From the IMG/VR virus record IMGVR_UViG_2606217118_000004: 35,076 bases of DNA, one strand, 5' to 3'. Source of the stretch: a virus (lineage: Duplodnaviria; Heunggongvirae; Uroviricota; Caudoviricetes). Shown in pieces: positions 12,491 to 32,920 of this stretch. The position numbers were made by a program, and so were the translations under genes. Numbering within the stretch: the stretch's first letter is position 1; each line of letters begins with the position of its first letter. Below the pieces are notes generated by a model. It saw only the letters and a list, made by a program, of their open reading frames with translations, had not been told where the DNA came from and ran no database searches.

Positions 12491-12696
12491 TGCCCGCTTT
12501 ATGTAGTGGTTTTCATGCGCCTGCATGACATAAGCAAAAGCCCGCCATTCCTGGCGGGCCTCAGCTAAAACGATCCTCAAACGATCATGCGGATTCATGC
12601 GGCATAGTCATGCAGCACAATTCCTTTGCCCCACTATATCCTTTGTGGCAGAAATTGAGGAAAATGATTCATAAATACTCATATTTCGGAGGATAT

Positions 12697-13596
12697 ATGG
12701 CAGTTCTATTTTTATTTGGCGCAGGTGCGAGTTTTGGCAGCGGTCCATGTAGTCCATCCAATCCACCTCTTGGTAAAGATCTGCTTATCCGCATGCGTGA
12801 AAAAGGTGGAGTTGCTTCAACTATTGATGGCGCTCTATTGGAGAGTTTCATTGCAGATCCTGAACAAGGAATGATTAATTTTTTCAATGAACGAAATTGC
12901 GAGACAACTCACCTCCTAAAGCAGATGTGCGCCTATCTTGCACAATTTCGGGTCGAGAAAGAAAACACCTACATAAAACTGTTTAACCTATTAAAAAAAA
13001 GAAAAAACATATGTATGGCAACAACTAATTACGACCTATTAATTGAACAAGCTATATGCTCTGTTGGCTGTCTTGTTCAATATCACTCATCGAAGCGCAA
13101 TAGAAATAACATACCGGTATTAAAAATACATGGCTCAGTAAACTTCATACCAGTTGCAAATATCGTTAATATCGATTTCGAATTACCTGATTGCGAGAAC
13201 TCTGCAATATTCGATGGTCCAATTGATATTTACAACGATGAGCAAGACGTGATTGCATACTGCGAAAGTGATTCTGCCCTCTCACCCGCAGTTGCATTAT
13301 ATCATCCCAAAAAAAGCGTATTGCACTGCCCCTCATTTGTTAAGTATCAGCAGGAAGAGTTTCGTTCTGAGGTTGAACGTTCATCCAAGATATTCATTAT
13401 TGGACTTAAAATAAATCCAAATGATGAGCATATTTGGTCTGAAATTGAAAAAACTTCAGCCGACGTCTACATAGTAGACAAGGATAAAGAATCTACTATC
13501 ACCTGGGTTAATAGCTTGAGCAAAAAGAACATTTACCACATAGCTGATACTTTTGATGAATCGATTGTGAGAATTAAAAACATTCTGCAATTATAG
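12697..13596 (+). CDS. Standalone SIR2-like (ThsA-type) NADase-domain protein; candidate anti-phage cargo in the cos-A hotspot
   Basis: ORF track 12610..13596; start placed at the Met with a GGAGG RBS (MAVLFLFGAGAS...). Ordered motifs GAGAS, TTNYDLLIE, KIHGS and IFIIGLKINPNDEHI follow the SIR2_2/ThsA pattern. Visibly AT-rich; opposite strand to flanking phage genes. Confidence 0.6.
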   Translation: MAVLFLFGAGASFGSGPCSPSNPPLGKDLLIRMREKGGVASTIDGALLESFIADPEQGMINFFNERNCETTHLLKQMCAYLAQFRVEKENTYIKLFNLLKKRKNICMATTNYDLLIEQAICSVGCLVQYHSSKRNRNNIPVLKIHGSVNFIPVANIVNIDFELPDCENSAIFDGPIDIYNDEQDVIAYCESDSALSPAVALYHPKKSVLHCPSFVKYQQEEFRSEVERSSKIFIIGLKINPNDEHIWSEIEKTSADVYIVDKDKESTITWVNSLSKKNIYHIADTFDESIVRIKNILQL

Positions 13597-13700: not shown

Positions 13701-13934
13701 TCAGTGCAGCCAGCTGTCGTCTTCCCAAACCTGCTGCATAATTTCCATTACCCGCTTTTTGTCTTCATCAAGCTTTAAGCCACTCAGCTCAACGCCGTTT
13801 GCCGACCCTTTACGGATGCGAATAGCTGTCTTTGGATAGATGGGCTGCAGGTTGCGGTAAAGCTCGGACTCCAGAGCGTCCAGGGTTACCTGGCTAATCT
13901 TTTGCTCTTTATCGATCATTATCTCAATTCGCAT
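13701..13934 (-). CDS. DinI-family protein
   Basis: 77 aa beginning MRIEIMIDKEQ... with ...KRVMEIMQQVWEDDSW near the C-terminus, resembling E. coli DinI; downstream of a LexA box. Confidence 0.7.
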   Translation of the reverse strand: MRIEIMIDKEQKISQVTLDALESELYRNLQPIYPKTAIRIRKGSANGVELSGLKLDEDKKRVMEIMQQVWEDDSWLH

Positions 13935-13942: not shown

Positions 13943-14131
13943 CTAACTGGAAATATCCATTGATCGGCTGTATTCATGGCTACGAATTTTCGCCATCAGC
14001 TCATCGGTCAACTCAGAAGCCCACTGAAGAGCCAGCTGCTTTTCTGCATCATCACACTCGCTAGCCGCTACAAGCTTGATAAAAAAATCAATGCGCTGGA
14101 GCTTCAAAGACTCCAAAAGGTAATCCTGCAT
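13943..14131 (-). CDS. Small hypothetical protein, first gene of the LexA-box operon (possible Tum-like antirepressor component)
   Basis: ORF track 13943..14146 begins at a GTG; the ATG at 14131 (MQDYLL...) has a GGAGGG RBS. Sits ~50 bp downstream of the LexA box and is closely followed by the DinI-like gene. Confidence 0.45.
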   Translation of the reverse strand: MQDYLLESLKLQRIDFFIKLVAASECDDAEKQLALQWASELTDELMAKIRSHEYSRSMDISS

Positions 14132-14180
14132 TTTCCCTCCTATCACTACTACTGGACAAACATAACTGTATGTATATCCA

Positions 14181-14196
14181 CTGTTTATATATACAG
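14181..14196. promoter_or_regulatory. LexA (SOS) box CTGTTTATATATACAG
   Basis: Exact CTGT-N8-ACAG with an AT-only spacer, embedded in ACTGTTTATATATACAGTAT; a CTGT half-site lies just upstream at 14166-14169. Confidence 0.6.
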
Positions 14197-18816: not shown

Positions 18817-19326
18817 TCACAGCAAACCGAATGAAGCACCAAGGCCAGTCATGGTATCAACTGCACTCGCCATCGCCGGGTTAGCCTGTAAACGGGCCTG
18901 CAATGAAACAGCAGCCAGCGCCATCAGTCGTGTTACAGAGTTAATGCTGCTGATAGCATCACGACGACCTGCACTGGTTTTTACATTGCCAGATACCGCA
19001 CCTGCAGCAATACGCCCGATCTCTGCGGTTGCACTCATGACGTAATGCGGCAGTTTCTCTTTTGCTACCTCATTAATCGGTACACATGGCAGGCAGTGAA
19101 TCTGTGCCAGAAAACCATCTATCAGCGTTGAATCTTCAGTCAGATCGGTAAGCAGCCAGATTTCTGGCGCATTGAGCTGATGCGGTTGATCTGGGTTGAG
19201 TTTGTTTCGCAGAGTCTGGACATTCATTCCTGCACGTTCTGCCAGCTTCGCCATATTATGACGAAGTGCAAAAGCTCTACAGGCTTCATCAAAATGCGGG
19301 TGTTTGGAAATCTTATAATCAAACAT
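18817..19326 (-). CDS. cII: CII-like lysogeny establishment activator (phage 186 type)
   Basis: 169 aa, the length I recall for 186 CII; sits immediately downstream of the Apl-like gene in the lytic operon. Confidence 0.7.
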   Translation of the reverse strand: MFDYKISKHPHFDEACRAFALRHNMAKLAERAGMNVQTLRNKLNPDQPHQLNAPEIWLLTDLTEDSTLIDGFLAQIHCLPCVPINEVAKEKLPHYVMSATAEIGRIAAGAVSGNVKTSAGRRDAISSINSVTRLMALAAVSLQARLQANPAMASAVDTMTGLGASFGLL

Positions 19327-19358
19327 GCTACCCCCTTAGAAAGTTCTCATAATTGAAC

Positions 19359-19601
19359 TTACTTACCAACAATGACGCGGAAGTTGGAATGACCGAGGGA
19401 TTCACGGACCTGATCTGTTTTGTACATTAAATAACGCAGGCTTACGCGGCCTTTGTTTTTTTCTTTCTTGACCATGTATTTAGCAAGCTGACCATGGTGA
19501 ATTTTTTGATACACGGAGCCGCGGGAGATACCTTCCCATTCCGCGAACTCAGCAGGCGTTGCCATCTCTTTTGGTACACGAATTGAAATATCAGTACTCA
19601 T
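19359..19601 (-). CDS. apl: Apl/Cox-like helix-turn-helix excisionase and switch regulator
   Basis: 80 aa; first gene of the lytic operon, divergent from cI; helix-turn-helix-like segment PAEFAEWEGISRGSVYQKIHHGQL. Confidence 0.6.
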   Translation of the reverse strand: MSTDISIRVPKEMATPAEFAEWEGISRGSVYQKIHHGQLAKYMVKKEKNKGRVSLRYLMYKTDQVRESLGHSNFRVIVGK

Positions 19602-19711
19602 AGTGCAGTATCTCTTAGTTTGGTTTCGTTTTATCTTGTTTTATGTGGTTTGGTTTTGCTTTTCAAACCATGAATGGATATTAAGATCACTTTTTATATA
19701 CGTCAAGAGGT
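19602..19711. promoter_or_regulatory. Lysis-lysogeny switch region (divergent promoters and operators)
   Basis: 110-bp AT-rich gap between divergent apl and cI with repeated GTTTGGTTT-type motifs and an inverted AAACCA element. Confidence 0.5.
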
Positions 19712-20350
19712 TTGATTATGAGTTTAATCAAGGCGGGGAATGATAGTGGTGGGCGCGATGCGATTAATAGGCTTATTAAGGCTTACAACTTCAGCTCACG
19801 ACAGCAGCTCTGCGAACATCTGGAAGTATCAAAAAGCACTATGGCTAACAGATACTTAAGGGATAGCTTTCCTGCCGAATGGGTAATCCAATGTGCCCTT
19901 GAAACAGGAGCTTCCCTTCTATGGCTGGCTACTGGTCAAGGAGATATGTATGCGTGTGAGAACGAAGAAATAAATCTCAAAAATGAACCTCCCGTCACTG
20001 TAAGACCACTTTCTAAGATCGTTGCTCCTAGCATCAAACGTGTTGAACTGAAGAACGGCGAACTGCAGCCAAGTGATGAAATTCTTCTTGATAGCAGCCT
20101 GCTCGATGGTGACTCATCCAACGCTTTATTTGTTAAAACAGCTAATGATAGCTTTGTAGTGGATACGTCTGTTAAACAAGTCAGTAATGGCTTCTGGTTA
20201 GTCGATATGGACGGAGTTAAAAGCATCGTCAAAATTGCGCGCATACCCGGAAACAAAATAGTAGTTAACCAAGATGACACTTCATTTGAATGTTCTGTAG
20301 ATGATGTGGAAGTCGTAGGACGTGCAGTCAAAGTAATCAAGAACCTCTAA
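19712..20350 (+). CDS. cI: CI-like immunity repressor (186 type, N-terminal helix-turn-helix)
   Basis: 212-aa ORF divergent from apl and directly upstream of int. Confidence 0.65.
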   Translation: MIMSLIKAGNDSGGRDAINRLIKAYNFSSRQQLCEHLEVSKSTMANRYLRDSFPAEWVIQCALETGASLLWLATGQGDMYACENEEINLKNEPPVTVRPLSKIVAPSIKRVELKNGELQPSDEILLDSSLLDGDSSNALFVKTANDSFVVDTSVKQVSNGFWLVDMDGVKSIVKIARIPGNKIVVNQDDTSFECSVDDVEVVGRAVKVIKNL

Positions 20351-20353
20351 CTT

Positions 20354-21394
20354 ATGACCATCAGAAAACAGCCGAACGGAAAATGGTTGTGTGAGTGCTA
20401 TCCCAATGGACGCAATGGTAAGCGCGTGCGTAAGCAATTTGCTACCAAAGGCGAAGCCATTGCGTTTGAAAGCTTCACAATGGAAGAAGTGAACAAAAAA
20501 CCATGGCTAGGGGAAAAGGAAGATCGGCGACATCTATCAGAATTAATTGAGCTGTGGTATTCCCTGTATGGTCAAACACTCGCAGACCCCAAGCGCCTCA
20601 TGGCGAAACTTAGAATTATCTGTAATGGTCTAGGCGATCCCATCGCCTCAGAACTGACAGCTGGTGAGTTTACGAAATACCGCGAAGCACGGTTAAAAGG
20701 TGAAGTACGAAATGAAGATGGCACGCTTATGTCGCCCGTTAAGCCCCGCACGGTAAATCTTGAACAGCGCAACCTATCATCTGTTTTTGGTACACTGAAA
20801 AAGCTGGGCCACTGGTCAGCCCCCAACCCGCTTGCTGGGCTGCCAACATTTAAAATTGCTGAGGGTGAATTGGCGTTCCTGACCCCGGAAGAAATTAAAC
20901 GTCTGCTGGATGCCTGTGCTGATTCTCAAAGCCCCAGTCTGCTGATGATTGCAAAAATATGCTTGGCCACCGGCGCACGCTGGAGCGAAGCCGAAAACTT
21001 ACAGAGTCATCAGGTATCAAAATACCGTATCACTTATACCAAGACTAAAGGAAAGAAAAACCGAACAGTGCCTATTTCAAAGGATTTATATGAAGAACTG
21101 CCTAAGAATAGGGGAAAATTATTTACACCTTGTAGGAAAGCTTTTGAACGTGCGGTTAAACGAGCTGGTATCGAGCTACCAGAAGGGCAATGCACACACG
21201 TATTACGACATACATTTGCAAGTCACTTTATGATGAATGGCGGAAACATACTGGTGCTGCGCGATATTCTGGGCCATGTCGATATAAAAATGACAATGAT
21301 TTACGCCCACTTCGCTCCCGACCATCTGGAAGATGCTGTAACCAAAAATCCTCTTGCTAACCTTGGATGGAGAAAATTAGAAAGTGCTTGTTAA
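20354..21394 (+). CDS. int: Tyrosine integrase (P2/186 type)
   Basis: 346 aa; C-terminal catalytic signature HVLRHTFAS ... LGH ... MIYAH. Confidence 0.85.
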   Translation: MTIRKQPNGKWLCECYPNGRNGKRVRKQFATKGEAIAFESFTMEEVNKKPWLGEKEDRRHLSELIELWYSLYGQTLADPKRLMAKLRIICNGLGDPIASELTAGEFTKYREARLKGEVRNEDGTLMSPVKPRTVNLEQRNLSSVFGTLKKLGHWSAPNPLAGLPTFKIAEGELAFLTPEEIKRLLDACADSQSPSLLMIAKICLATGARWSEAENLQSHQVSKYRITYTKTKGKKNRTVPISKDLYEELPKNRGKLFTPCRKAFERAVKRAGIELPEGQCTHVLRHTFASHFMMNGGNILVLRDILGHVDIKMTMIYAHFAPDHLEDAVTKNPLANLGWRKLESAC

Positions 21395-21500
21395 TAACTA
21401 TATCCAACAATACCCATGGATATCGTACTTACTTATCATAATATATTTTATATATATATGCCTTGAATTATATCTATGCGTATCAAAAAAAGGCTTTAAC

Positions 21501-22430
21501 ATGGATGAAAGGCCATTAACAAGTCAATACTTATTTAAACAATCACTTAGGATTCCTGTATTTTCAGCGATATACTTTGGTATATTTTCCTGGCTTGGAC
21601 ATTCCCCTCAATTTGATAGTGAGGGCTTTAATAATTTCATTGCAATTAGCAAGCTTCCTATCGCCTTACTTTCTTTGTCCATACCATTTGTTGCTGTCGT
21701 AGCAAACATACACCGCACAGTTCAAACAAACCGACAAATTGAGGAAACCAAGCAAAAGAATCTATCTGATAGCTACTATAGCCATCTAAAGTTCGTTACT
21801 GATTATTTCACCAATTTACCTAACAAAACCATTAAACGCGAACGTCATTATGGTACTAAAGAGATAAGTTATAAAATTAACTACCCAATACATCTATATA
21901 GATATATTTTCATAAATAGCTCACCAGAGAAGGGACGGCCTAAAAATACAGATAAAGAATACATACGTGAAGTAAATAATCACTGGGTTGATATACTAAA
22001 AAACCTAGAGAAGATAAATTCATCTAATCGTGGCTCTCAGTTTGACGAAGTTTTAATCCGTCAAATGCAATCTCTTCATTCAATAGAAAAACACTTATCC
22101 GAACTTAATCGAATGCTTTGCCTAACTCCCATGGAGTTAAATGAACATGCAACTTTATACTTTGATGGATATGAAATGATTACTAACTTCATGTCCAGCA
22201 TTGAACTTGGCGATACAATTGAAACCTACTTCAAATTTACCATTGATATTCTTGATATTACCGATAATTTCCTTTCATTCAAGGATGATGGCTCGTCTGG
22301 GCAAATCATTATACTAGCAAGATTACTGAAAGATAATAATCCAGCTATCTTTGATGAAATTGTAACAAACAAAGGGAAGGCTCAACCTTCGTTGACCTAC
22401 AATGGCGACAGATTGGCGACAGAGCATTAA
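21501..22430 (+). CDS. AT-rich hypothetical membrane-anchored protein; cargo gene between int and attR
   Basis: Track 21384..22430; the first 39 codons overlap int, so start placed at MDERPLTSQ. Two predicted transmembrane helices then a ~240-aa soluble domain; composition visibly AT-rich. Confidence 0.5.
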   Translation: MDERPLTSQYLFKQSLRIPVFSAIYFGIFSWLGHSPQFDSEGFNNFIAISKLPIALLSLSIPFVAVVANIHRTVQTNRQIEETKQKNLSDSYYSHLKFVTDYFTNLPNKTIKRERHYGTKEISYKINYPIHLYRYIFINSSPEKGRPKNTDKEYIREVNNHWVDILKNLEKINSSNRGSQFDEVLIRQMQSLHSIEKHLSELNRMLCLTPMELNEHATLYFDGYEMITNFMSSIELGDTIETYFKFTIDILDITDNFLSFKDDGSSGQIIILARLLKDNNPAIFDEIVTNKGKAQPSLTYNGDRLATEH

Positions 22431-22515
22431 AAATGAGTAAAACGGACAAACACAAGATAATACTAACTTGCTGATTTTAAACGCAAGTTAATGTTTTTGC
22501 TATAGTGAAAATGGT

Positions 22516-22560
22516 ATGTAGGAATTTCGGACGCGGGTTCAACTCCCGCCAGCTCCACCA
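22516..22560 (+). other. ssrA: 45-nt copy of the tmRNA (ssrA) 3' end ending in CCA; att core at the prophage/satellite junction
   Basis: ATGTAGGAATTTCGGACGCGGGTTCAACTCCCGCCAGCTCCACCA matches the E. coli ssrA 3' terminus as I recall it; sequence upstream of 22516 is not ssrA-like, so this is only the core fragment. Confidence 0.7.
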
Positions 22561-22595
22561 CTTGCTCTTCCGGATACGTCCGGAGAAATCCTGAA

Positions 22596-22629
22596 AGCCC
22601 GCATGGCACAAGCTTTGCGGGCTTTTTTG
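22596..22629 (+). terminator. Intrinsic terminator just downstream of the ssrA core copy
   Basis: AGCCCGCA...TGCGGGCT hairpin followed by TTTTTT. Confidence 0.45.
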
Positions 22630-22672
22630 TGTCTACCGTTGTCCGAGGATATCCAGCTAAATCCAGTGATTA

Positions 22673-22724
22673 TTGGTATACGTTTAGGTATACGGTAGGA
22701 TATATACCTAAACGCGTATACCAA
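22673..22724. repeat. Inverted repeat TTGGTATACGTTTAGGTATAC / ATACCTAAACGCGTATACCAA upstream of the satellite int; candidate integrase arm-type sites
   Basis: Near-perfect ~21-bp inverted arms between the att core and int; a third copy lies at 33323-33344 at the other end of the element. Confidence 0.35.
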
Positions 22725-22744
22725 TTCATGAAGGAGCGGCCAAA

Positions 22745-23938
22745 GTGGCAAGAACGACACGCCCCCTGACCAACACAGAGGTTCTGCGCGCTAAAGCGTT
22801 AGAAAAGGATCTAACGTTGCATGATGGCGATGGTCTTTTTCTGCTCGTTAAAACGAACGGTAAGAAGTTATGGCGTTTCCGTTATCAACGTCCAGCAACA
22901 AAGCAGCGAACAATGATGGGGCTAGGTGCCTTCCCCACCCTTTCACTTGCTGACGCCCGACGGTTAAGAGCGAATTACCTTTCCTTGTTAGCCAACGGAA
23001 TTGACCCGCAAATTCAAGCTGAAATTGCAGAGGAACAGCAGCAAATCGCACTGGACAGTATTTTTTCAACCGTCGCCGCTAACTGGTTCCAGCTTAAAAG
23101 CAAAAGCGTTACCCCTGATTACGCGAAAGACATTTGGCGTTCACTAGAAAAAGATGTATTCCCTGCCATCGGTGAGATCCCAGTTCAGCAAATCAAAGCC
23201 CGAATGCTTGTTGAAGCCCTAGAGCCTATCAAAGCACGTGGGGCGCTAGAGACGGTACGTCGTCTGGTGCAGCGTATTAATGAGATAATGATTTACGCCG
23301 TAAACACAGGTCTGATTGATGCCAATCCAGCATCAGGTATTGGGATGGCCTTTGAGAAACCTAAAAAGCAAAACATGCCTACGCTCCGGCCAGAAGAATT
23401 ACCGAAGCTGATGCGTTCTTTGATTATATCTAATCTGTCTGTTCCGACACGTTGTCTTATTGAGTGGCAACTACTGACCCTTGTACGCCCTTCTGAAGCC
23501 TCTGGTACTCGGTGGGCAGAGATCAATCTCGATGCAAAGCTCTGGACGATTCCAGCCGAACGGATGAAGGCCAAACGTGAGCACATTGTTCCTCTATCTC
23601 CTCAGGCATTAGAAATTCTGGAAGTGATGAAACCAATCAGTGCTCATCGTGAACATGTTTTTCCGAGCAGAAATGACCCTAAACTGCCAATGAATAGCCA
23701 GACTGCTAATGCAGCATTAAAACGTATTGGATATGGTGGAAAACTTGTCGCACATGGTATGCGTTCAATTGCCAGTACAGCGATGAACGAGGCAGGTTTA
23801 AATCCAGATGTGATTGAATCAGCATTGGCACATACCGATAGAAATGAAGTAAGAAAAGCATACAATCGCACCACCTATCTGCCACAGCGAATAACACTTA
23901 TGAATTGGTGGGGAGATTTTGTAAGGAACCTTAAATAA
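22745..23938 (+). CDS. int: P4/CP4-57-type tyrosine integrase
   Basis: 397 aa; located ~185 bp downstream of the ssrA 3' end, the arrangement I recall for intA of CP4-57. Confidence 0.85.
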   Translation: MARTTRPLTNTEVLRAKALEKDLTLHDGDGLFLLVKTNGKKLWRFRYQRPATKQRTMMGLGAFPTLSLADARRLRANYLSLLANGIDPQIQAEIAEEQQQIALDSIFSTVAANWFQLKSKSVTPDYAKDIWRSLEKDVFPAIGEIPVQQIKARMLVEALEPIKARGALETVRRLVQRINEIMIYAVNTGLIDANPASGIGMAFEKPKKQNMPTLRPEELPKLMRSLIISNLSVPTRCLIEWQLLTLVRPSEASGTRWAEINLDAKLWTIPAERMKAKREHIVPLSPQALEILEVMKPISAHREHVFPSRNDPKLPMNSQTANAALKRIGYGGKLVAHGMRSIASTAMNEAGLNPDVIESALAHTDRNEVRKAYNRTTYLPQRITLMNWWGDFVRNLK

Positions 23939-23986
23939 TATATATTCATCTAATTAGCGCCCTTATCAAGTTAGGGCGCGATTAAC

Positions 23987-24490
23987 TTAAAGAAGTTTCA
24001 TTGTTTTCATTGTATCTTTAAAATCCTTAAATCCATCAAATAAAATGATGAAATTTGCTAGCGTCACCGATGGAGCATCAATAGTCATACTAGTACCTTT
24101 TATAAAGGTATGAGCGGCAGCATTTCTTGGGGTCTTGAGTGATGTCAAAGTGGCTTTTAATGTAAAAAGTTTTTGTTGTGTTGCTTGTTTTTCAATTTTT
24201 TCAATTGAGCTCAATCCTATAACTTGGGCTAACATTTTTTTAAAATTGTCCTCATAATGGAAATTATAATTCCGTTTTATTTCATTTTGGATTTTTTTTA
24301 TGTGTTCAGGGTTAGTTATATTTTTTTTACAAACTCCTTCAATTATGTTATCCATGGTTACCTCTATCCATCCGCACAACTCCATAAGAGCAAGCTTAGA
24401 ATAAAACAACTGTTTTTTAGGATCGGTTTCCTTAGTAAAGAGGCGATCTAACTCTTTCAATGTTTTATGAATTGTCCCCTTAACTATCAT
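23987..24490 (-). CDS. HEPN-domain protein (predicted RNase), second gene of the hotspot operon
   Basis: Track 23987..24502 begins at a TTG; the ATG at 24490 lies 4 nt after the DUF262 stop. Candidate Rx4H HEPN motif in ...TPRNAAAHTF...; AT-rich. Confidence 0.55.
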   Translation of the reverse strand: MIVKGTIHKTLKELDRLFTKETDPKKQLFYSKLALMELCGWIEVTMDNIIEGVCKKNITNPEHIKKIQNEIKRNYNFHYEDNFKKMLAQVIGLSSIEKIEKQATQQKLFTLKATLTSLKTPRNAAAHTFIKGTSMTIDAPSVTLANFIILFDGFKDFKDTMKTMKLL

Positions 24491-24494
24491 GATT

Positions 24495-25589
24495 TCACCC
24501 AAATATTCTTAGAGCGGCATCTAACCTTGCGTCAACTTTTTCCTTACTGGCTACACCACCGCTCAGAAAAGCCGTTGATAATGAATTATCTGCCCTTAAA
24601 TCATCAAAACGCTGGCTTAAACTAGCGCTAGTTTCTTGCTCTAAAAGATCAATATTTTTTGCTACACCATATAAAAGGGCTTCCATTAAAGAACTACCAA
24701 GTCTCATTGGATTGGGTTGTAATATTTTATTCCACACCAGACCTACGGTCCTCTTAAATAAATCCTCTTTTAGAGCTATATCTGACTTTCCTAAATGACG
24801 GTTTTTCTTCATATAGCCATTGAGAAATTTAGATAAAGTGCCTTTATACTTATCTTTGTTATCGTAAAATGAGAAAAATCGCAAGATAAGTTCGATATAC
24901 TTAAACCTATTCGAATTCTTGGTATTCAAGCCAGCTATTTTTTGCCACTCATCAATTTCATTCATTTCTTTGAGGGCATTATTAAACTCACCGCTAAAAA
25001 TACAATTCCTAATTTCTTGGTTATTAAGTCTTGTGCCTCCAGAATTCAACCGATGAAATATAGTAAACAAATACTCCATATGTGATAGTTTAGAATGATC
25101 ACATCTAAGCACAGTGACTGGAATTGTTAAGTTTTGCACTCTCTTATAAAAATTATTCAATTCAGTCTTTTGTTTATGAAACTCTGATACACGAACACCA
25201 GATATTTTACTATCAATATCATCGAGCTTAGACAGTTGCCAGCTTGGGTCAGATAAAAATCTGATTATTGACGTCATTCGCTGCAACCCATCAATTACCT
25301 GCCATTCCTGACTATTATAATCAAAACTAAAACACATGCTAGGAATAGGAAGCTGTTTAATTAAGGAGTCAATAAATCGTGTTTGAGCTGATGAATTCCA
25401 TACAATGTCTCTTTGAAAATCTGGTTGAATATTCAAAGTTCCTTCATTGTACATGCGAACTAAATCAGAGCAGGATCTCAACTCATTATAGGCAATCACA
25501 TCACTTGGCGGATGTTGCTCACTATCATCTTCATAATAAGATTCATCTTCTAAATTCTCAATATCTTCAAGAGTAATGTCAGCAGTCAT
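24495..25589 (-). CDS. DUF262 (ParB-like NTPase domain) protein, first gene of the hotspot operon
   Basis: Track 24495..25622; start placed at MTADITLEDIE (GGAG RBS with 5-nt spacer). DUF262 signature motifs QPDFQRDIVW, VIDGLQR and FHRLNSGG; no HNH/DUF1524-like nuclease motif seen. Confidence 0.65.
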   Translation of the reverse strand: MTADITLEDIENLEDESYYEDDSEQHPPSDVIAYNELRSCSDLVRMYNEGTLNIQPDFQRDIVWNSSAQTRFIDSLIKQLPIPSMCFSFDYNSQEWQVIDGLQRMTSIIRFLSDPSWQLSKLDDIDSKISGVRVSEFHKQKTELNNFYKRVQNLTIPVTVLRCDHSKLSHMEYLFTIFHRLNSGGTRLNNQEIRNCIFSGEFNNALKEMNEIDEWQKIAGLNTKNSNRFKYIELILRFFSFYDNKDKYKGTLSKFLNGYMKKNRHLGKSDIALKEDLFKRTVGLVWNKILQPNPMRLGSSLMEALLYGVAKNIDLLEQETSASLSQRFDDLRADNSLSTAFLSGGVASKEKVDARLDAALRIFG

Positions 25590-25906
25590 ATAATCTCCAA
25601 TATGAAATTTAAAAAAGCTCATCTATCCTTTAGATGAGCAAATAGAACTTCCTTTCATCTGCAACTCGATAATATTTAACTATCGCCTTGCAAACTCCCA
25701 CTAATTTTAGCGGCATTGTTACCCTGGTTCAATTAATTATTTCCCCCCCCATTTGCTGCACTTTCACTGAGCATCGCCCCCAACACAAAAAGCCCAAACA
25801 AAAGCGTATGAAAAAATGAGGCTTTCAAGCAAAATTATAGCTTGAGTTTGTTCATCCAAAAGCGACTTCGCATGTATTAGAAAATTCAGCATATACATTG
25901 CGCGCA

Positions 25907-25925
25907 GTGCTTTCCCCGCCTCGCC
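25907..25925. other. Satellite cos site (reverse complement GGCGAGGCGGGGAAAGCAC)
   Basis: Exact 19-nt match to the P2/P4 cohesive-end sequence as I recall it; lies between the hotspot cargo and psu. Confidence 0.7.
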
Positions 25926-26089
25926 CGCCCGCTTTGCGGGGCGGGTTTAATGCAGTTTCACTGACACGCTCAGGCCGCGCCGGGAATGGCGCGGTCTGCA
26001 GAAAATGAGGCAGGAAAACGCATGCAAAGCCATGCACCTTATCGATGCATGGCTTTTTTCAGTAAAAACGGGCGGATTTTCGGGGAGTT

Positions 26090-26662
26090 TTACACAGACT
26101 GATGTGATGCCAGTTGCGCACTTTTACGCGAAAAAATCATGTTCTGCGCAGGAGTGAATTTTTCACGGCTGTCATCCACCGAAGCCGCGTCAGGCCTGAA
26201 TCCGATGGCCGTTAAAATGTCGCTATCCTGTGCGGAATAATTAATTTTTTCCCCCTTCGCAAGCCAGGACAGAAGGGCTTCACGCAGGGCATCTGTGGCA
26301 CACTGTATGGCACAGTTTCGGGCAATGGCCGTCAGTTCACTGTAGCCCATCAGCTCCGGTGCCAGTGCGGCCGCCAGTACTGTGCCGTGCTGCTGCATAA
26401 AATCATTCAGCCGGTCGCGGATGCTGATGTGCTGAACGGCTTCATGCGAACGAATATAACGACCGGCGGCCTGATTCACCTGCCATTTTCTGACTTCGAT
26501 AATATTGCGTAATTCGTCCAGGCGACTGACGTTTCTGCCTTCTCCTGACAGAAGCCGCAGATATTCCTGTTCGGCCGCAGCCAGCTCATTTTTGCGTTGC
26601 AGCCATGCTGCTTTGTTATTCTGACAGGTGTCAAAGGCCTGCTGTAAGGCAGTGCTTTCCAT
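26090..26662 (-). CDS. psu: Polarity suppression protein Psu
   Basis: 190 aa, the P4 Psu size; last gene of the psu-delta-sid operon, adjacent to cos. Confidence 0.8.
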   Translation of the reverse strand: MESTALQQAFDTCQNNKAAWLQRKNELAAAEQEYLRLLSGEGRNVSRLDELRNIIEVRKWQVNQAAGRYIRSHEAVQHISIRDRLNDFMQQHGTVLAAALAPELMGYSELTAIARNCAIQCATDALREALLSWLAKGEKINYSAQDSDILTAIGFRPDAASVDDSREKFTPAQNMIFSRKSAQLASHQSV

Positions 26663-26735
26663 CGTTATCTCTTTCTCATCATGCTGAAGAATAAAAATAC
26701 GGTGTGCGGCGACGGCCGGGGTTAACCGGCAGCCC

Positions 26736-27236
26736 TCATTCCAGACGCAGCGAATATGATTGTGTTTTTAAGCGTACTGGCGGCAGTTCCTGTTTTTCAT
26801 GCAGGCTTTCTGCCAGTTCGTCCGGCGTGACCGGGCGGACAATAAAACGGTTGATGGTCTGAAGCGTTTTAAACACCAGACCACAGCCCGGATCCGTGCA
26901 CACATAAAAACGCTCGGTGACTTCCTGAGACAGACGCCGCGATGTTCTTGACAGTGCAAGGCCTTTACATCTCCGACAACAATATCCGGTAACAAGCATT
27001 CTTTTCTGGCGTTTCATACTGCCGGAGGCTGACGTCAGTGAATCGCGGTATCTCTGTTTGCCTGAAATGTATTCCATTCCTGAATCTTTACAGTCAGAGA
27101 AAAAGCTTTCACTCGCTTCAAATGTCGCAGAGCAATAAATATTCCGGCACTGTGCAATCATTATCTTGGTGCCATCGTCCATGAAATGTGCGCGACGGGT
27201 GTGAGCAACATGTCCACACGACGGGCAGTAAATCAT
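26736..27236 (-). CDS. delta: Delta late transcription activator (tandem Ogr-type zinc fingers)
   Basis: 166 aa; two Ogr-like cysteine clusters (MIYCPSCGH...QCRNIYC and YCCRRCKG...CTDPGCG). Confidence 0.8.
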   Translation of the reverse strand: MIYCPSCGHVAHTRRAHFMDDGTKIMIAQCRNIYCSATFEASESFFSDCKDSGMEYISGKQRYRDSLTSASGSMKRQKRMLVTGYCCRRCKGLALSRTSRRLSQEVTERFYVCTDPGCGLVFKTLQTINRFIVRPVTPDELAESLHEKQELPPVRLKTQSYSLRLE

Positions 27237-27967
27237 GACAGCAGTCCTCTGGCCTTAAGCTCTGCACCCTGCTGGTCTATTTTGTCCTGCCACACCTTGC
27301 GCTGTGCCGGTGTGCCTGCCACCTCATAATCCATGTGCGGGAGTGTTGCCGCTGACAGTCCGGTCAGCCGGAGAACCGGCTCGCCGGTGAGGCTGATTTG
27401 CATCTGTTTAATTTTCTGTTCCAGCGATGATTTCACCTGCTGCATGACAGCCTTTTCCGGTGCGACGTAGCCCTGATGGCCGGTGGTGTTGGCGAGCGGA
27501 TTTTCCTGTACCAGAATGCTCAGATGCATTGCCCGGACAAGCGCCTCACAGGTTTCATTCAGGGCGTGTTCCAGCTCATGCTCTGCATACAGACTCAGAA
27601 GGTGATAATGTGCCTTCCGGTAGGCGGTGGCCGTGCTGTCACACGCCCCTTTCAGGCGTTCACGTTCGAAATTCAGCACCACGGCCAGATTGTCATATTC
27701 CTGTACCAGCTCCCGGCGTGCCACGCGCTCAATGTGGCGCTGTTTCAGCTCGTCGCTCAGGACACCACCGGCTGCACGAAAGGCCGTGCGCCAGTCGTCA
27801 GCGTCGTTTCCGTCGGCCTGCGTCAGCGCATTTTTTTCCTGCTCTGCCCGTTCAATGGCCGTGACGGTCTCATCCATCAGGCGGGCGTTCTCAAGGTGGG
27901 CGGCTCTGGCCTTTTCCAGTTGTGCCAGTGCGGGTTGCAGATATTCAGGGATGGTGTTGTCAGACAT
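27233..27967 (-). CDS. sid: Capsid size determination protein Sid
   Basis: Track 27233..28033; the internal ATG at 27967 (MSDNTIPEY...) has a GAGGAG RBS and gives 244 aa, the P4 Sid size. Confidence 0.75.
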   Translation of the reverse strand: MSDNTIPEYLQPALAQLEKARAAHLENARLMDETVTAIERAEQEKNALTQADGNDADDWRTAFRAAGGVLSDELKQRHIERVARRELVQEYDNLAVVLNFERERLKGACDSTATAYRKAHYHLLSLYAEHELEHALNETCEALVRAMHLSILVQENPLANTTGHQGYVAPEKAVMQQVKSSLEQKIKQMQISLTGEPVLRLTGLSAATLPHMDYEVAGTPAQRKVWQDKIDQQGAELKARGLLS

Positions 27968-28039
27968 TTTCCGGCTCCTCGTCACTTCAGGTTGAGAAAA
28001 TTGTGACGTACACCGGACAGCAACACGACGCATTGCAGA

Positions 28040-28057
28040 TGTGCCAGCCCTGACACA
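28040..28057. promoter_or_regulatory. TGT-N12-ACA dyad (TGTGCCAGCCCTGACACA), candidate Delta/Ogr site of the sid late promoter
   Basis: Dyad lies ~80 bp upstream of the sid start, consistent with a -55 activator site. Confidence 0.45.
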
Positions 28058-28136
28058 GGAGACTCATCCTCAGACCGGCAAGCCAGGAAAAGGTCGCAGG
28101 AAAAACCGGCTTACTGTTTGTTTTTTTATATTTTAC

Positions 28137-28240
28137 TGTTCACCTCTGTTCACCTTAAGAAAAAAGATAAGTAATACAGTAAGTTAAAGGGTGAACAATC
28201 GCAGTAATGACTGTTCACCGTCTGTTCACCACTGTTCACC
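28137..28240. repeat. Cluster of six TGTTCACC octamer iterons (one inverted); candidate satellite ori
   Basis: Octamers at about 28137, 28147, 28190 (inverted), 28212, 28223 and 28233; the same octamer recurs in the crr repeats after alpha. Confidence 0.55.
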
Positions 28241-28566
28241 CGTTGATGGGCTTTTTGTGCTGTTTATTACTTTTTATTTTTATTAATTCACTGAAATAAA
28301 TAAGAAAAAACAATTTGTATTTCACTATAATTTTTTCCAGCTCCTTCCAGAGCGTTTTAAAGCTATCTGGCGCTAATGTACAAAAAATACACAGCCATTG
28401 TAAGGCTGCCGGAACAAATCCCCCCTGTTGCGTCTGCTGAAAATATTCACAAAATAAAGCGCTACCCGAAGCCGGACGGACTTATCCGGTGCTGTATGGA
28501 CATTAACGAGGTAGCCCGATGCAAGCTGTTTTTTCTTCCCCGTCTCCCGCCCCTGTGACGCCACTG

Positions 28567-28785
28567 ATGCCGCTGCCGGACATCACACAGGAGCGTTTTT
28601 TACGTCTTCCGGAAGTGATGCACCTGTGCGGCCTGTCACGCTCGACCATCTATGAACTCATCCGTAAGGGGGAATTTCCGCCGCAGGTGAGTCTTGGCGG
28701 TAAAAATGTGGCCTGGCTGCACTCTGAAGTCACTGCATGGATGGCCGGGCGCATTGCCGGACGCAAACGGGGGTACGACGCATGA
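28567..28785 (+). CDS. alpA: AlpA-family helix-turn-helix regulator (excisionase-like)
   Basis: Track 28519..28785; ...[51 protein letters not shown] is typical of AlpA-type proteins. Confidence 0.7.
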
Positions 28786-28878
28786 TGATGCCCGCTCTGC
28801 AAAAACTCCCTTTTTCTGGCTTGCCTTTTTCCGGCATTTGCGGATATAGTTTTTCCGCTGCCGCAAAATCGGCAGCCG

Positions 28879-29173
28879 GGCGTGAGAACCCGAGCAATCT
28901 AACGGCGACATATGACGCGCCATGCGTCTTTTTTTGTGTCGCAATCAACGCCACAGAGCGCCAGATTATGGTGTGGTGTGTGGTCAGTCGTGCAGATGGC
29001 ATTCCGTGCATCCTGCCCGCGTCCGCTCATTATGCCGCAGAGTCAATGGTAGCTCAGGCGGGGCAGCCTCCGGGCTGGCCGGTATCCGTTAGAGCCGGTA
29101 TTCTCACCCCCGTCTGGGCTATCGCCATCGAGCGTGAGAACTCCGGCGATAGCGTAACCTGCTATCTAACGGA
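28879..29173 (+). ncRNA. Candidate P4-type RNA immunity region: direct repeats (seqA/seqC-like) flanking a complementary segment (seqB/CI-RNA-like)
   Basis: GCGTGAGAAC...ATCTAACGG occurs at ~28879-28904 and ~29133-29173, and CCGTTAGAG...TTCTCAC at ~29086-29108 is largely complementary to them. The long ORF over this region looks spurious. Confidence 0.3.
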
Positions 29174-29183
29174 GGCTGCCATC

Positions 29184-29381
29184 ATGGCTACAACCCTTAC
29201 CCCCTCACACCCTGAATTTGTCTTTGTGTTTGCGGCTGTCCGTCGCGCAGACCGTCATCCCCGTATCTGTATGCTTCGCACCGTCGCCGGTGATGAACGC
29301 AGCGCCCGCCGTTCCCTTGTCCGTGACTATGTGCTCTCCCTTGCTGCCCGTCTGCCGGTGGTGGAGGTGTCCCGTGCGTAA
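29184..29381 (+). CDS. Small hypothetical protein of the satellite early operon (65 aa)
   Basis: ATG with a GGAGG RBS ([12 protein letters not shown]...). The ORF track extends this frame to 28737, but that upstream part has no start signal and covers the RNA-repeat region. Confidence 0.45.
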
Positions 29382-29661
29382 TAAAAAAGCCCCTCAGACC
29401 GTCTCAGCGCGTCATGACGCCCGTGAACACCTCAGCATTGAGGCTTACCATAAGCTCAACCGCGCCAGCGCCGTATCCCAGTTTGTTGGGGGTGATTTGA
29501 TTCACCGTGAACTCTCCGGCCTGCATCAGCTCTACATTCCGCATATTTTCAGCTACCTGAATGAAGATATTGATTTTGTGCTGAATGAGCTGAAAGCCAA
29601 AGGCCTGTGCCGCGATTTTCTCGCCCAGCAGAAAGACCGGGGAGACAGGACGCATGTTTGA
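29374..29661 (+). CDS. Small hypothetical early protein (~95 aa), possibly the epsilon-position gene
   Basis: GTG start with GGAGG 6 nt upstream, overlapping the previous stop; the track lists a longer version from 29218. Epsilon assignment is by position only. Confidence 0.35.
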
Positions 29662-30109
29662 TTTTCCCCAGCCCGGTGAGATTTACCGTTCTGCCGGTTT
29701 TCCCGATGTGGCCGTGGTCGGCATTCTGGAAGACGGTATTCCGTGGGAAATGCCGTACCGCTGTCCGGAAATTGTCTGGAACCCGTACCGCCGAAAATTC
29801 AGTATCCTTGTGCGTATCCTCACTGACGGGCGCACCACAGACATCCCGCTGGGGCGTTTTCTGCGGGAATTTACCTGTGACCGTCCTGACCTGTTCAGAC
29901 GCAGCCCCGTAAACCGGCATGCGGTACTGAAAGAAATGGCCGGAGACCCGGAATTACAGAAATGGCGGGAGAAATATCTGGATATTTACCCGCAGGACAC
30001 TGTTCCGGCCAGCCGGGCGGCACCGGTGGCGCGGGAATGGCGGGAAATTCCCCGCACGGAGCCTGACCCGGAAATCACCCCGGATAACAGTTACCGCAAT
30101 TATCTGTAA
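29654..30109 (+). CDS. Hypothetical early protein (151 aa)
   Basis: Overlaps the preceding ORF end by 8 nt; length matches the orf151 I recall in P4 upstream of alpha. Confidence 0.5.
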   Translation: MFDFPQPGEIYRSAGFPDVAVVGILEDGIPWEMPYRCPEIVWNPYRRKFSILVRILTDGRTTDIPLGRFLREFTCDRPDLFRRSPVNRHAVLKEMAGDPELQKWREKYLDIYPQDTVPASRAAPVAREWREIPRTEPDPEITPDNSYRNYL

Positions 30110-30244
30110 TTAAAAAACGACACCCGAAAAATTAAATGTGCGTATTCGCGCAGGGATACGCACGTCTTCAGGAGACGCAGATATGCCTTATCAGTTAATG
30201 CAACCGGCACGGAATGCAGTCATCTGTCACAGGGAGGAAAACAA

Positions 30245-30565
30245 ATGAAAACACCCTTACCGCCCGTCTTACGCGCTGCCCTTTACCGTCGCGCTGTCGC
30301 CTGTGCCTGGCTGACCGTGTGCGAACGTCAGCACCGCTACCCGCATCTCACCCTTGAATCACTGGAGGCGGCCATCGCCGCTGAGCTGGAGGGCTTTTAT
30401 CTGCGCCAGCACGGTGAGGAAAAAGGGCGTCAGATAGCCTGTGCCCTGCTGGAAGATTTAATGGAATCCGGCCCCCTGAAGGCCGCGCCGTCGCTGTCCT
30501 TTCTCGGGCTGGTTGTGATGGATGAACTCTGTGCCCGTCACATAAAAGCGCCGGTACTGCACTGA
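30245..30565 (+). CDS. Hypothetical early protein (106 aa)
   Basis: ORF immediately upstream of alpha. Confidence 0.5.
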
Positions 30566-30579
30566 AGGAGAACAACACC

Positions 30580-32913
30580 ATGAAAATGAACGTAACCGCC
30601 ACCGTCAGCCATGCGCTCGGCCACTGGCCGCGTATTCTCCCGGCGCTGGGGATTCAGGTGCTGAAGAACCGTCATCAGCCCTGTCCGGTCTGTGGCGGGA
30701 GTGACCGTTTCCGTTTTGATGACAGGGAGGGGCGCGGCACCTGGTACTGCAATCAGTGTGGTGCCGGTGACGGCCTGAAACTGGTTGAAAAGGTGTTTGG
30801 TGTTTCCCCGTCCGACGCGGCCACAAAGGTGGCAGCCGTGACCGGCAGCCTGCCCCCGGCTGACCCGGTAGTGACGGCTGCCGCCGGTGCTGAAACAGAC
30901 GCTGCCCGGAAGAACGCCGCCGCACTGGCACAAACCCTGATGGCGAAAACCCGTCCCGGAACCGGTAACGCCTACCTGACCCGCAAGGGCTTTCCCGGCC
31001 GGGAATGCCGGATGCTGACCGGCACACACAGAGCCGGTGGCGTGAGCTGGCGTGCCGGTGACCTTGTGGTGCCACTGTATGACGACAGCGGCGAACTGGT
31101 TAACCTTCAGTTAATCAGTGCTGACGGCCGTAAGCGCACCCTGAAAGGCGGACAGGTCAGGGGCACCTGTCACACCCTTGAAGGACAGAATCAGGCCGGG
31201 AAACGTCTGTGGATAGCGGAGGGATACGCGACCGCACTTACCGTGCATCACCTGACCGGTGAAACGGTGATGGTGGCGCTTTCTTCCGTGAATCTCCTTT
31301 CTCTGGCCAGCCTTGCCCGGCAGAAGCATCCGGCCTGTCAGATTGTCCTTGCTGCTGACCGTGACCTCAGCGGTGACGGCCAGAAAAAAGCCGCCGCAGC
31401 CGCAGATGCGTGTGAAGGTGTTGTTGCCCTGCCGCCGGTCTTCGGTGACTGGAATGATGCCTTCACGCAGTACGGCGGGGAAGCCACCCGTAAGGCCATT
31501 TATGATGCCATCCGGCCACCGGCTGAAAGCCCGTTCGACACCATGAGCGAAGCGGAGTTTTCCGCCATGAGTACCAGCGAAAAGGCCATGCGTATCTATG
31601 AGCATTACGGCGAGGCGCTCGCGGTCGATGCCAACGGCCAGCTTCTGTCCCGCTATGAAAATGGTGTCTGGAAGGTGCTGCCGCCACAGGACTTTGCCCG
31701 GGATGTGGCCGGGCTGTTTCAGCGTCTGCGCGCGCCGTTCTCCTCCGGGAAGGTGGCCTCCGTGGTGGACACCCTGAAGCTGATTATTCCGCAGCAGGAA
31801 GCCCCCTCCCGCCGCCTGATTGGCTTTCGTAACGGCGTGCTCGACACGCAGAACGGCACGTTCCACCCGCACAGTCCGTCACACTGGATGCGCACCCTGT
31901 GCGATGTGGATTTCACCCCGCCGGTGGACGGTGAAACGCTGGAGACCCACGCCCCCGCGTTCTGGCGCTGGCTTGACCGTGCCGCCGGTGGCCGTGCGGA
32001 AAAACGCGACGTGATTCTGGCCGCACTGTTTATGGTGCTGGCAAACCGCTACGACTGGCAGCTCTTTCTGGAGGTGACCGGTCCCGGCGGCAGCGGCAAA
32101 AGTATCATGGCCGAAATAGCCACCCTGCTGGCCGGGGAGGATAACGCCACGTCGGCCACCATCGAGACGCTGGAATCCCCGCGTGAACGTGCCGCGTTAA
32201 CTGGCTTCTCACTGATACGCCTGCCGGACCAGGAAAAATGGAGCGGCGACGGTGCCGGACTCAAGGCCATCACCGGCGGCGATGCGGTGTCCGTTGACCC
32301 GAAATACCGGGATGCATACTCCACGCATATCCCGGCGGTGATTCTGGCCGTGAACAATAACCCGATGCGCTTCACCGACCGCAGCGGCGGCGTGTCACGC
32401 CGGCGGGGGATTATTCACTTCCCGGAACAGATAGCCCCGCAGGAGCGCGACCCGCAGCTTAAGGACAAAATCACCCGCGAGCTGGCGGTCATCGTGCGTC
32501 ACCTGATGCAGAAGTTCAGCGACCCGATGCTCGCCCGGTCACTGCTTCAGTCCCAGCAGAACTCAGACGAGGCGCTGAACATCAAACGGGATGCCGACCC
32601 GACGTTTGATTTTATCGGCTATCTGGAAACCCTGCCGCAGACCAGCGGCATGTATATGGGGAACGCCAGTATCATCCCGCGTAATTACCGTAAATACCTC
32701 TATCACGCCTATCTGGCCTACATGGAGGCAAACGGCTACCGGAATGTACTCAGTCTGAAAATGTTCGGGCTGGGGCTGCCGGTGATGCTGAAGGAATACG
32801 GACTGAATTACGAGAAGCGCCATACCAAACAGGGGATACAGACCAACCTGACACTGAAAGAGGAAAGCTACGGCGACTGGCTGCCAAAATGTGACGACCC
32901 TGCAACAGCCTGA
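30580..32913 (+). CDS. alpha: Alpha primase-helicase (replication protein)
   Basis: 777 aa, the P4 alpha size; N-terminal zinc-binding motif CPVCGG...CNQCG, Walker A GPGGSGKS in the C-terminal half. Confidence 0.9.
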   Translation: MKMNVTATVSHALGHWPRILPALGIQVLKNRHQPCPVCGGSDRFRFDDREGRGTWYCNQCGAGDGLKLVEKVFGVSPSDAATKVAAVTGSLPPADPVVTAAAGAETDAARKNAAALAQTLMAKTRPGTGNAYLTRKGFPGRECRMLTGTHRAGGVSWRAGDLVVPLYDDSGELVNLQLISADGRKRTLKGGQVRGTCHTLEGQNQAGKRLWIAEGYATALTVHHLTGETVMVALSSVNLLSLASLARQKHPACQIVLAADRDLSGDGQKKAAAAADACEGVVALPPVFGDWNDAFTQYGGEATRKAIYDAIRPPAESPFDTMSEAEFSAMSTSEKAMRIYEHYGEALAVDANGQLLSRYENGVWKVLPPQDFARDVAGLFQRLRAPFSSGKVASVVDTLKLIIPQQEAPSRRLIGFRNGVLDTQNGTFHPHSPSHWMRTLCDVDFTPPVDGETLETHAPAFWRWLDRAAGGRAEKRDVILAALFMVLANRYDWQLFLEVTGPGGSGKSIMAEIATLLAGEDNATSATIETLESPRERAALTGFSLIRLPDQEKWSGDGAGLKAITGGDAVSVDPKYRDAYSTHIPAVILAVNNNPMRFTDRSGGVSRRRGIIHFPEQIAPQERDPQLKDKITRELAVIVRHLMQKFSDPMLARSLLQSQQNSDEALNIKRDADPTFDFIGYLETLPQTSGMYMGNASIIPRNYRKYLYHAYLAYMEANGYRNVLSLKMFGLGLPVMLKEYGLNYEKRHTKQGIQTNLTLKEESYGDWLPKCDDPATA

Positions 32914-32920
32914 CCCACCT

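Follow-up and report, generated by a model that had tools for sequence, protein, structure and literature searches.

The ssrA 3' end copy between a Fels-2-type prophage and a P4-like satellite is very probably the internal att site in a tandem array of the two at the tmRNA gene

The subject of this study is a 35,076-nucleotide (nt) stretch of viral DNA, IMG/VR record IMGVR_UViG_2606217118_000004 (Caudoviricetes), which as a whole is called the window, and in particular the 45 nt at positions 22516-22560, which on the plus strand read ATGTAGGAATTTCGGACGCGGGTTCAACTCCCGCCAGCTCCACCA. This 45-mer is very probably the internal attachment (att) site of a two-element tandem array at ssrA, the gene for transfer-messenger RNA (tmRNA), with a P2-family prophage of the Fels-2 type (the candidate helper) on its left and a complete P4-like satellite on its right. 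A sequence-only reading of this DNA had taken the 45-mer to be a copy of the ssrA 3' end and this was borne out, as the copy is exact, represents an att duplicate of that end, occurs once within the window, and had 0 matches across 100 shuffles. It is the same as the final 45 nt of the annotated intact ssrA of E. coli 2020N21-246, where the identity in the alignment ends exactly at 45 nt, and the attP core annotated in the Fels-2 record (47 nt) is the 45-mer followed by AA. No tmRNA or tRNA gene was detected within the window by ARAGORN and Rfam and therefore the 45-mer is a 3' fragment and not a gene. It is best read as the right-hand attachment (attR) core of the Fels-2-type prophage. The parts of the array in the window are the following.

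1-22515: Fels-2-type (P2-family) prophage, its right-hand ~22.5 kilobases (kb), cut by the left end of the window inside the tail-fibre gene H
22516-22560, plus strand: helper attR core and satellite attL (left-hand attachment site), a copy of the ssrA 3' end, with the satellite crossover block CCGCCAGC at 22546-22553
33398-33420, plus strand: satellite attR, a degenerate ssrA 3' copy TTCAAACTCCGCCAGCCCAATCA, which aligns with attR/psaA of K-12 CP4-57 and with the ssrA 3' end

The gene order in E. coli 2020N21-246, which carries a related Fels-2-type prophage and the identical satellite, is smpB, intact ssrA, prophage (ogr through int, then cargo), 45-mer, satellite, and glaH. Among the att sites of the tandem array, the internal one (22516-22560) and the distal one (33398-33420) are in the window and the intact ssrA is found in the related genome NZ_CM125675.1. 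That an intact ssrA would lie beyond the left end of the window is well supported by this analogy, and in the tandem it is predicted to be about 33 kb upstream of the left junction of the satellite. In the course of events that we propose, the P2-type tyrosine integrase of the prophage would have recombined ssrA with a block of 45-47 nt that has the same sequence as the 3' end of this gene, thereby rebuilding an intact ssrA at the far junction, to the left of the window, and leaving the displaced 45 nt at the right junction, where they are seen. The satellite would have been inserted at ssrA by its IntA/CP4-57-type integrase, with its left junction inside the same 45 nt and its right junction at 33398-33420.

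On the left of the 45-mer the integrase end of a 186-like prophage had been expected and this was correct in part. A P2-family prophage does end there, but one cargo open reading frame (ORF) separates Int from the 45-mer and the prophage is of the Fels-2 type rather than of the 186 type. Nineteen of its proteins are 74-100% identical in amino acids (aa) to those of Salmonella phage Fels-2 (NC_010463) with the gene order kept (Apl 100%, terminase P 97.4%, CI 92.9%, and Int 92.7%), and its DNA aligns with that of Fels-2 over 19.4 of the 22.5 kb (86%) at 83.5%. When compared to 186 (NC_001317) the aa identity was 30-70% and 6.0 of the 22.5 kb of DNA (27%) could be aligned. The genes Q, P, O, N, M, and L are present along with an integrase and gpA in the order of Fels-2, as in P2-like prophages, and the high identity, the synteny, and the identical ssrA att core are those of Felsduovirus (Fels-2-like). 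Membership in Eganvirus, which is what "186-like" would mean, was rejected on account of these aa and DNA values and of the attB of 186, which is in ileY. The term is correct solely for the regulatory architecture, namely, the 186-type CI, Apl, CII, Fil, and the tum-type operon. The ORF lengths of the prophage agree with those of annotated relatives, no frameshift or insertion sequence was seen, and its visible part appears to be intact. The best match to the helper in the phage database was OK490418.1, 'Klebsiella phage Kp4865-2' (95.4% nt identity, integrase 100%); the phage type may cross genera, or else the host label given in that record should be checked. A related Fels-2-type phage is present as a separate replicon, NZ_CP019275.1 (37,446 nt, E. 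coli 13P477T), in a strain that also has a chromosomal copy, and this separate record hints at a form that is excised and replicates, so that the phage type would be active.

On the right of the 45-mer a P4-type integrase with a full satellite had been claimed, and here nothing had to be changed since all of the P4 core genes come after the integrase at 22745-23938, together with cos, ori, and crr. Window positions 25926-33258 align in a single piece with positions 4291-11624 of P4 X51522 (NC_001609) at 97.8% nt identity, and Psu, Delta, Sid, Vis, Epsilon, ORF151, ORF106, and Alpha have the lengths of their P4 counterparts and share 97-100% identity with them. The features of the satellite between its ends are as follows.

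22745-23938, plus strand: satellite integrase, P4 family, IntA/CP4-57 type (Pfam Arm-DNA-bind_3, Phage_int_M, and Phage_integrase)
23987-24502, minus strand: PD-T4-2_B (HEPN), PADLOC E = 8.6e-64
24495-25622, minus strand: PD-T4-2_A (DUF262/GmrSD_N), PADLOC E = 2.3e-162
25907-25925, minus strand: satellite cos GGCGAGGCGGGGAAAGCAC, the exact P4/P2 19-nt cohesive end with 0 mismatches, with flanks that align with both P4 ends
26090-26662, minus strand: psu
26736-27236, minus strand: delta
27233-27967, minus strand: sid
~27741-28464: ori
28519-28785, plus strand: vis/orf88
29042-29129, plus strand: CI RNA (Rfam C4 family)
29374-29661, plus strand: epsilon
29654-30109, plus strand: orf151
30245-30565, plus strand: orf106
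30580-32913, plus strand: alpha
32959-33258: crr, two 120-nt repeats

The integrase, psu, delta, sid, alpA/vis, epsilon, and alpha genes are in the P4 order over 22745-32913, as in P4-like satellites of type A of SatelliteFinder (PMC8628076), and the att-to-att length of 10,860 base pairs (bp) together with the exact P4 cos fits the P4-like small-capsid size of about 10-12 kb. The integrase matched NCBIfam PRK09692 at 581 bits, which is above the cut-off, and it is 59.6% identical to IntA of K-12 and 36.6% identical to P4 Int. The A and B genes of PD-T4-2, a predicted defence pair (Pfam, PADLOC), are adjacent with an 8-nt overlap, and the slot that they occupy is the published psu-int hotspot beside cos (PMC9122126). 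As judged from its sequence, the satellite is a P4 backbone with a swapped integrase, att, and hotspot module. In its immunity region the Rfam matches were C4, c4-a1b1 (28737-29381), and isrK (28844-28934), by which both the CI RNA and its target region are recognised; the isrK and c4-a1b1 matches overlap, and 'isrK' is here the target/leader element of the P4 type. The coding sequence of an 'Icd-like protein' that PGAP annotates over the CI RNA gene in relatives is probably an artefact.

The ends of the satellite and the DNA beyond it were delimited with the help of K-12, in which CP4-57 is inserted at the same gene, and the features found there are listed below.

22593-22631, plus strand: intrinsic terminator from the satellite, just after the ssrA 3' end (-22.9 kcal/mol, z = -4.75, T-run)
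22671-22694, plus strand: arm-type repeat TATTGGTATACGTTTAGGTATACG, left arm, with a 96%-identical copy near the other end
33321-33344, plus strand: arm-type repeat, right arm
33421-33570, plus strand: ancestral DNA downstream of ssrA, 88.5% identical to K-12 DNA immediately right of CP4-57
33544-33570, plus strand: terminator, presumably native
34099-35076, plus strand: glaH (csiD), chromosomal flank, 94% identical to K-12 glaH; this flank is also in 2020N21-246

The consensus of the 24-nt arm repeat is TATTGGTATACG(T/A)TTAGGTATACG. The block common to attL and attR, CCGCCAGC, is at 22546-22553 and 33406-33413, and the excised circle would be of the att-to-att length given above. The satellite attR is missing 4 nt compared to ssrA (GCCAGC----CCA). 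It has been tabulated that P4-type integrases at ssrA leave such damage whereas P2-type integrases (Fels-2, SopE-phi) leave perfect copies (PMC10107115, Table 1), and the window holds both, the perfect P2-type copy and the damaged P4-type copy side by side. From 33397 on, the window matches K-12 from the right end of CP4-57, including the pseudo-ssrA psaA and the downstream terminator, and the terminator at 22593-22631 has a homologue in K-12 CP4-57, where it likewise follows ssrA. Fels-2-type phages supply their own terminator at the left end. Because the terminator at 22593-22631 stands between the plus-strand cI-int-cargo genes of the helper and the satellite int, it should insulate the latter from helper transcription. 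The distance from the right end of CP4-57 to glaH is ~10.6 kb in K-12 (ypjA through ileY to ygaQ) and ~680 nt here (33421-34098), and because only ~680 nt remain there, ileY, the attachment gene of 186, is absent from this interval. No K-12 match was found for window positions 33568-33900.

It is rather probable that the prophage would be a working helper of the satellite, and in the scheme that we propose the excision, induction, and packaging steps are inferred from what is known of P2, P4, and 186. DNA damage would induce the prophage through its LexA-controlled Tum-like operon, upon which the ogr-type activator of the helper, from outside the window, would turn on Psid and PLL of the satellite, and reciprocally the satellite Delta would act on the late promoters of the helper. 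Sid would then make the capsid protein N form small capsids, and satellite DNA would be packaged into them by the helper terminase, starting at the satellite cos. Each element would excise independently, the helper by Int and Apl acting on the two perfect 45-nt cores and the satellite by Int and Vis acting on its own 8-nt common block. The phages 186 and PSP3 (186/Fels-2-like) have been reported to be P4 helpers. The helper features that enter into this scheme are given below.

6800-7450, minus strand: M (helper head/packaging)
7454-8512, minus strand: N, capsid (helper head/packaging)
8529-9362, minus strand: O, scaffold (helper head/packaging)
9441-9458: TGT-N12-ACA motif in the O/P intergenic region
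9505-11271, plus strand: P, terminase (helper head/packaging)
11268-12311, plus strand: Q, portal (helper head/packaging)
12472-12490, minus strand: predicted helper cos overhang GGCGTGGCGGGGATACGAG, which can be aligned to the cos regions of P4 and 186
13701-13934, minus strand: DinI-like ORF of the Tum-like operon (Pfam DinI)
13943-14146, minus strand: 67-aa ORF of the Tum-like operon
14181-14196, minus strand: LexA box of the Tum-like SOS operon, upstream of the operon and the only CTGT-N8-ACAG in the window
18817-19326, minus strand: CII (Pfam Phage_CP76)
19359-19601, minus strand: Apl (PHROG Cox-like excisionase)
19712-20350, plus strand: CI (Pfam Phage_CI_repr and Phage_CI_C)
20354-21394, plus strand: Int (Pfam Int_N and Phage_integrase)

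The M, N, O, P, and Q proteins of the helper have 85-97% aa identity to those of Fels-2 and 45-63% to their 186 homologues, and the cos flanks of helper and satellite are homologous. The Tum-like operon has the position of the p95/tum operon in 186 and of STM2726.1/2728 in Fels-2. It has been described that Tum-type antirepressors are the SOS-induction route of several Salmonella prophages, and repressor-antirepressor cross-regulation between Fels-2 and Gifsy prophages is listed in the same review (PMC7380047). From the LexA box, the tum-type position of the operon, and this described route it is therefore a reasonable inference that the prophage would be SOS-inducible. Motifs of the form TGT-N12-ACA are present in the O/P intergenic region, upstream of V, upstream of sid, and upstream of the P4 left operon.

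Several observations weigh against a working helper relationship and some of them favor an alternative, which we hold to be unlikely but not negligible, that the two elements are incidental neighbors with only the integration site in common, the prophage failing as a helper by a mismatch of terminase and cos, of capsid and Sid, or of the activator, or by a defect in the part outside the window. The helper cos overhang (12472-12490) differs from the 19-mer of the satellite and P4 (25907-25925) at 5 of 19 positions, while that of 186 differs at 2 of 19, and this puts in question whether the helper terminase would cut the satellite cos despite the conserved flanks. The capsid protein N shares just 60% identity with that of 186. 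The P2 C repressor is what P4 epsilon is documented to bind as an antirepressor, and since the repressor of the helper is an unrelated 186-type CI and not the documented target, derepression driven by the satellite is doubtful. Moreover, the Vis of the satellite is that of P4 but its integrase module is a foreign one, and the two are assumed to be compatible. The TGT-N12-ACA motif is not enriched in the window (9 found and 8.55 expected) and therefore only the motif positions were used, as weak support. The left third of the prophage lies outside the window, with its attL, its tail genes, and its ogr-type activator, as does the intact ssrA, so that the helper is only putatively complete; in relatives a tail module and an ogr-type activator are present. 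Finally, the same satellite is also found behind a lambdoid non-helper prophage. What argues against mere incidental neighborhood is that the cos flanks are clearly homologous, that every visible helper gene is intact, that the late-promoter-like motifs are rightly placed in both elements, and that the related phage with a separate 37.4-kb record points to an active phage type.

How the two elements came to be neighbors was addressed by their distribution in other genomes. Seventeen complete E. coli genomes, most of them of poultry isolates, have the satellite with its flank (22516-33600; 11,085 nt) at 100% identity. In most of these 17 genomes the identical satellite lies directly at an annotated intact ssrA and in 3 of them, two of which are assemblies of one strain, a Fels-2-type prophage is between ssrA and the satellite. 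In GPEC1035 (NZ_CM142796.1) it is a lambdoid prophage (LexA-family repressor, Cro, YmfL, integrase) that lies between ssrA and the identical satellite, and there the match to the window begins at 22525, showing that the lambdoid phage leaves a 36-nt ssrA copy. The right end of the prophage (19000-22563) is 100% identical in strains where another island comes next, and in strain HS4 the same prophage integrase and cargo gene are followed by a complete P4-like satellite. The satellite type was found in about 270 genomes and the prophage type in about 200, and the two were joined in at least 9-10 of 5,426 complete genomes, a count that is a lower bound because pieces were joined only within a limited distance. 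Near-identical arrangements are already in RefSeq genomes. Strain 503440 (NZ_CP025881.1) has a three-element array, with two Fels-2-type prophages in tandem at ssrA, one of them with IS100 in gpA, followed by an island with a CP4-57-like integrase. In species-representative genomes the exact 60-nt junction of helper arm, core, and satellite arm had 0 matches and the shorter pattern of helper arm and core was found at 5 loci in Enterobacter, Citrobacter, Klebsiella, and Photorhabdus. At 2 of these 5 loci P4-related sequence comes right after the Fels-2-type attR, a Psu-like fragment in Citrobacter pasteurii and a partial P4-family integrase match (45%) in the Klebsiella sp. WOUb02 'plasmid'. 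It therefore seems that arrays of this kind are not confined to E. coli.

That the two elements are adjacent is best put down to the ssrA 3' end being the target of both integrases, and the satellite most likely was there first, with the prophage as the later arrival. A Fels-2-type phage needs the full 45-nt core, which is offered only by the intact gene, and that is why the prophage lands between ssrA and the residents. It has to be set against this order that arrival leaves no trace in the sequence, the case being argued from population data alone. Indeed, both orders of arrival would yield the same sequence and the 45-mer contains the whole block common to the satellite attL and attR, so that the prophage could have come first and the satellite could later have taken the 45-nt remnant as a secondary target. 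We consider this reverse order improbable, because the 100% identical satellite and right flank in the 17 genomes, most of them without the prophage, indicate a resident, vertically inherited satellite and because an ssrA-satellite-prophage arrangement was seen in 0 of the 4 genomes inspected.

With the satellite taken as the earlier resident and the shared integration site as the cause of adjacency, it may still be asked if adjacency itself has been selected for an advantage in cis, that is, co-induction, co-excision, or co-transfer, as with helper-embedded satellites. Helper-embedded phage-inducible chromosomal islands show that physical linkage is exploitable (PMC10111431), and the tandem does recur in the at least 9-10 of 5,426 complete genomes. 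This frequency is low, however, despite 270 genomes with the satellite type and about 200 with the prophage type. In addition, the terminator at 22593-22631 would cut the satellite off from helper transcription, the att sites and integrases differ and there is no obvious mechanism of joint excision, P2/P4 cross-talk works in trans, and in GPEC1035 a lambdoid phage occupies the same position, all of which makes selection for adjacency very unlikely. There is next to no likelihood that the two, although contiguous with just 45 nt between them, are a single composite element moving as a unit, and this was rejected since each half is found alone at 100% identity in other genomes, each is equipped with an integrase, a directionality factor, a cos, and a pair of att sites of its own, and together they would come to about 45 kb compared to the 30.6-33.7 kb genomes of 186 and Fels-2.

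The damaged attR of the satellite has a predicted consequence for tmRNA. It has been shown that excision of CP4-57 deletes T357 and inactivates tmRNA (PMC10107115). The 4 nt missing in the satellite attR include the U of the G3-U pair. Because this attR is more damaged than that of CP4-57, whose excision inactivates tmRNA, excision of the satellite in strains that have only the satellite is predicted to inactivate tmRNA as well. The predicted scar of satellite excision is GCCAGCCCAATCA, which would be left in the remnant in the tandem and in ssrA itself where the satellite is alone. It is possible, and we suggest it tentatively, that an inserted prophage shields the tmRNA gene from the satellite, as excision of the latter would then damage the 45-nt remnant only. 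If this is true, a later excision of the prophage could restore or damage ssrA depending on the crossover point of the Fels-2-type integrase.

That each element carries its own hotspot cargo, as the sequence-only reading also had it, agrees with what was found, namely a weakly SIR2-like protein and an ORF of unknown function in the helper and PD-T4-2 in the satellite, all in published defence hotspots. From the left, the prophage has the tail-fibre gene H, baseplate, lysis, and head/packaging genes, the cos region, cargo, the DinI-like/Tum-like pair, gpA, a Dam methylase, small early genes, CII, Apl, CI, and Int. The remaining features of the prophage are these.

1-1062, minus strand: tail-fibre gene H, first 354 aa, 99% identical to the fibre of a relative
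12610-13596, plus strand: first helper cargo, encoding 328 aa with a weak likeness to SIR2, cos-proximal hotspot between portal and gpA, GC content 0.41
21384-22430, plus strand: second helper cargo, an ORF of up to 348 aa between Int and att, phrog_17460 (unknown function), GC content 0.36

The 328-aa protein scored 23.6 bits with Pfam SIR2_2, just below the cut-off, and its PADLOC matches to SIR2 and PDC-S25 had E values of ~1e-5; possibly it is an uncharacterised defence gene. Its cos-proximal position between portal and gpA is a described hotspot (PMC9122126). The ORF at 21384-22430 is annotated as ~310 aa in relatives and had no Pfam or NCBIfam match, and neither of the helper cargo genes had an NCBIfam match or a PDB sequence match. 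In relatives the slot between int and att holds an anti-phage dCTP deaminase or GapS1, and in P2-like phages it has been described as a minor P2 defence hotspot (PMC13586616). The second cargo ORF may thus be an unrecognised defence gene of this int-att hotspot.

It is known that the tmRNA locus is a hotspot for several integrase subfamilies and holds prophages and P4-like satellites (PMC10121019), that P2 and P4 co-occur (PMC13586616), and that P4-like elements can lie beside large prophages, as was observed in the census of P4 elements (PMC8628076). The arrangement is an ordinary case of a known phenomenon, as ssrA arrays, P2/P4 co-occurrence, and both hotspots have already been described, and no new kind of element or mechanism is revealed by it. 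What it offers is a clean and fully delimited case of the build-up of mobile elements at the tmRNA gene, in which the newest full-core arrival adjoins ssrA and the older elements are pushed outward and in which a true P4 backbone is seen carrying a swapped module of integrase, att, and defence genes. A candidate SOS-inducible helper beside a satellite in one strain would be a natural system for studying helper range (cos, Sid and capsid, activator cross-talk), and the same strain could be used for asking whether excision of the satellite damages tmRNA.

When compared to known systems, the prophage is like Fels-2 in gene order, att core, the homologous phage arm beside the core, and integration at ssrA, and it differs in its E. 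coli host, in the other cargo at the portal/gpA hotspot, and in the extra int-att gene, of which there is none in Fels-2. With 186 (Eganvirus) it shares the layout of the CI/Apl/CII/Fil switch, the LexA-controlled tum-type operon, and the P2-type late genes, whereas 186 integrates at ileY instead of ssrA and has DNA similarity over 6 of 22.5 kb. The satellite differs from P4 in its left 4.3 kb, where gop, beta, cII, int, and the leuX attP are replaced here by the IntA-type integrase, PD-T4-2, and an ssrA-type att with other arm repeats. It is like CP4-57 of K-12 in its chromosomal site, in the homologous attL terminator and attR (psaA), in having a damaged attR, and in an integrase that is 59.6% identical, but CP4-57 is a 22-kb degenerate island without psu, delta, sid, and alpha, whereas here there is a complete P4 satellite and its attR is short of 4 nt, as against 1 nt in CP4-57. 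Elements integrated in tandem arrays at the tmRNA gene were reportedly described by Williams in 2003 (J Bacteriol 185:1059), and the array in this window does not differ from those in kind but is another combination of elements.

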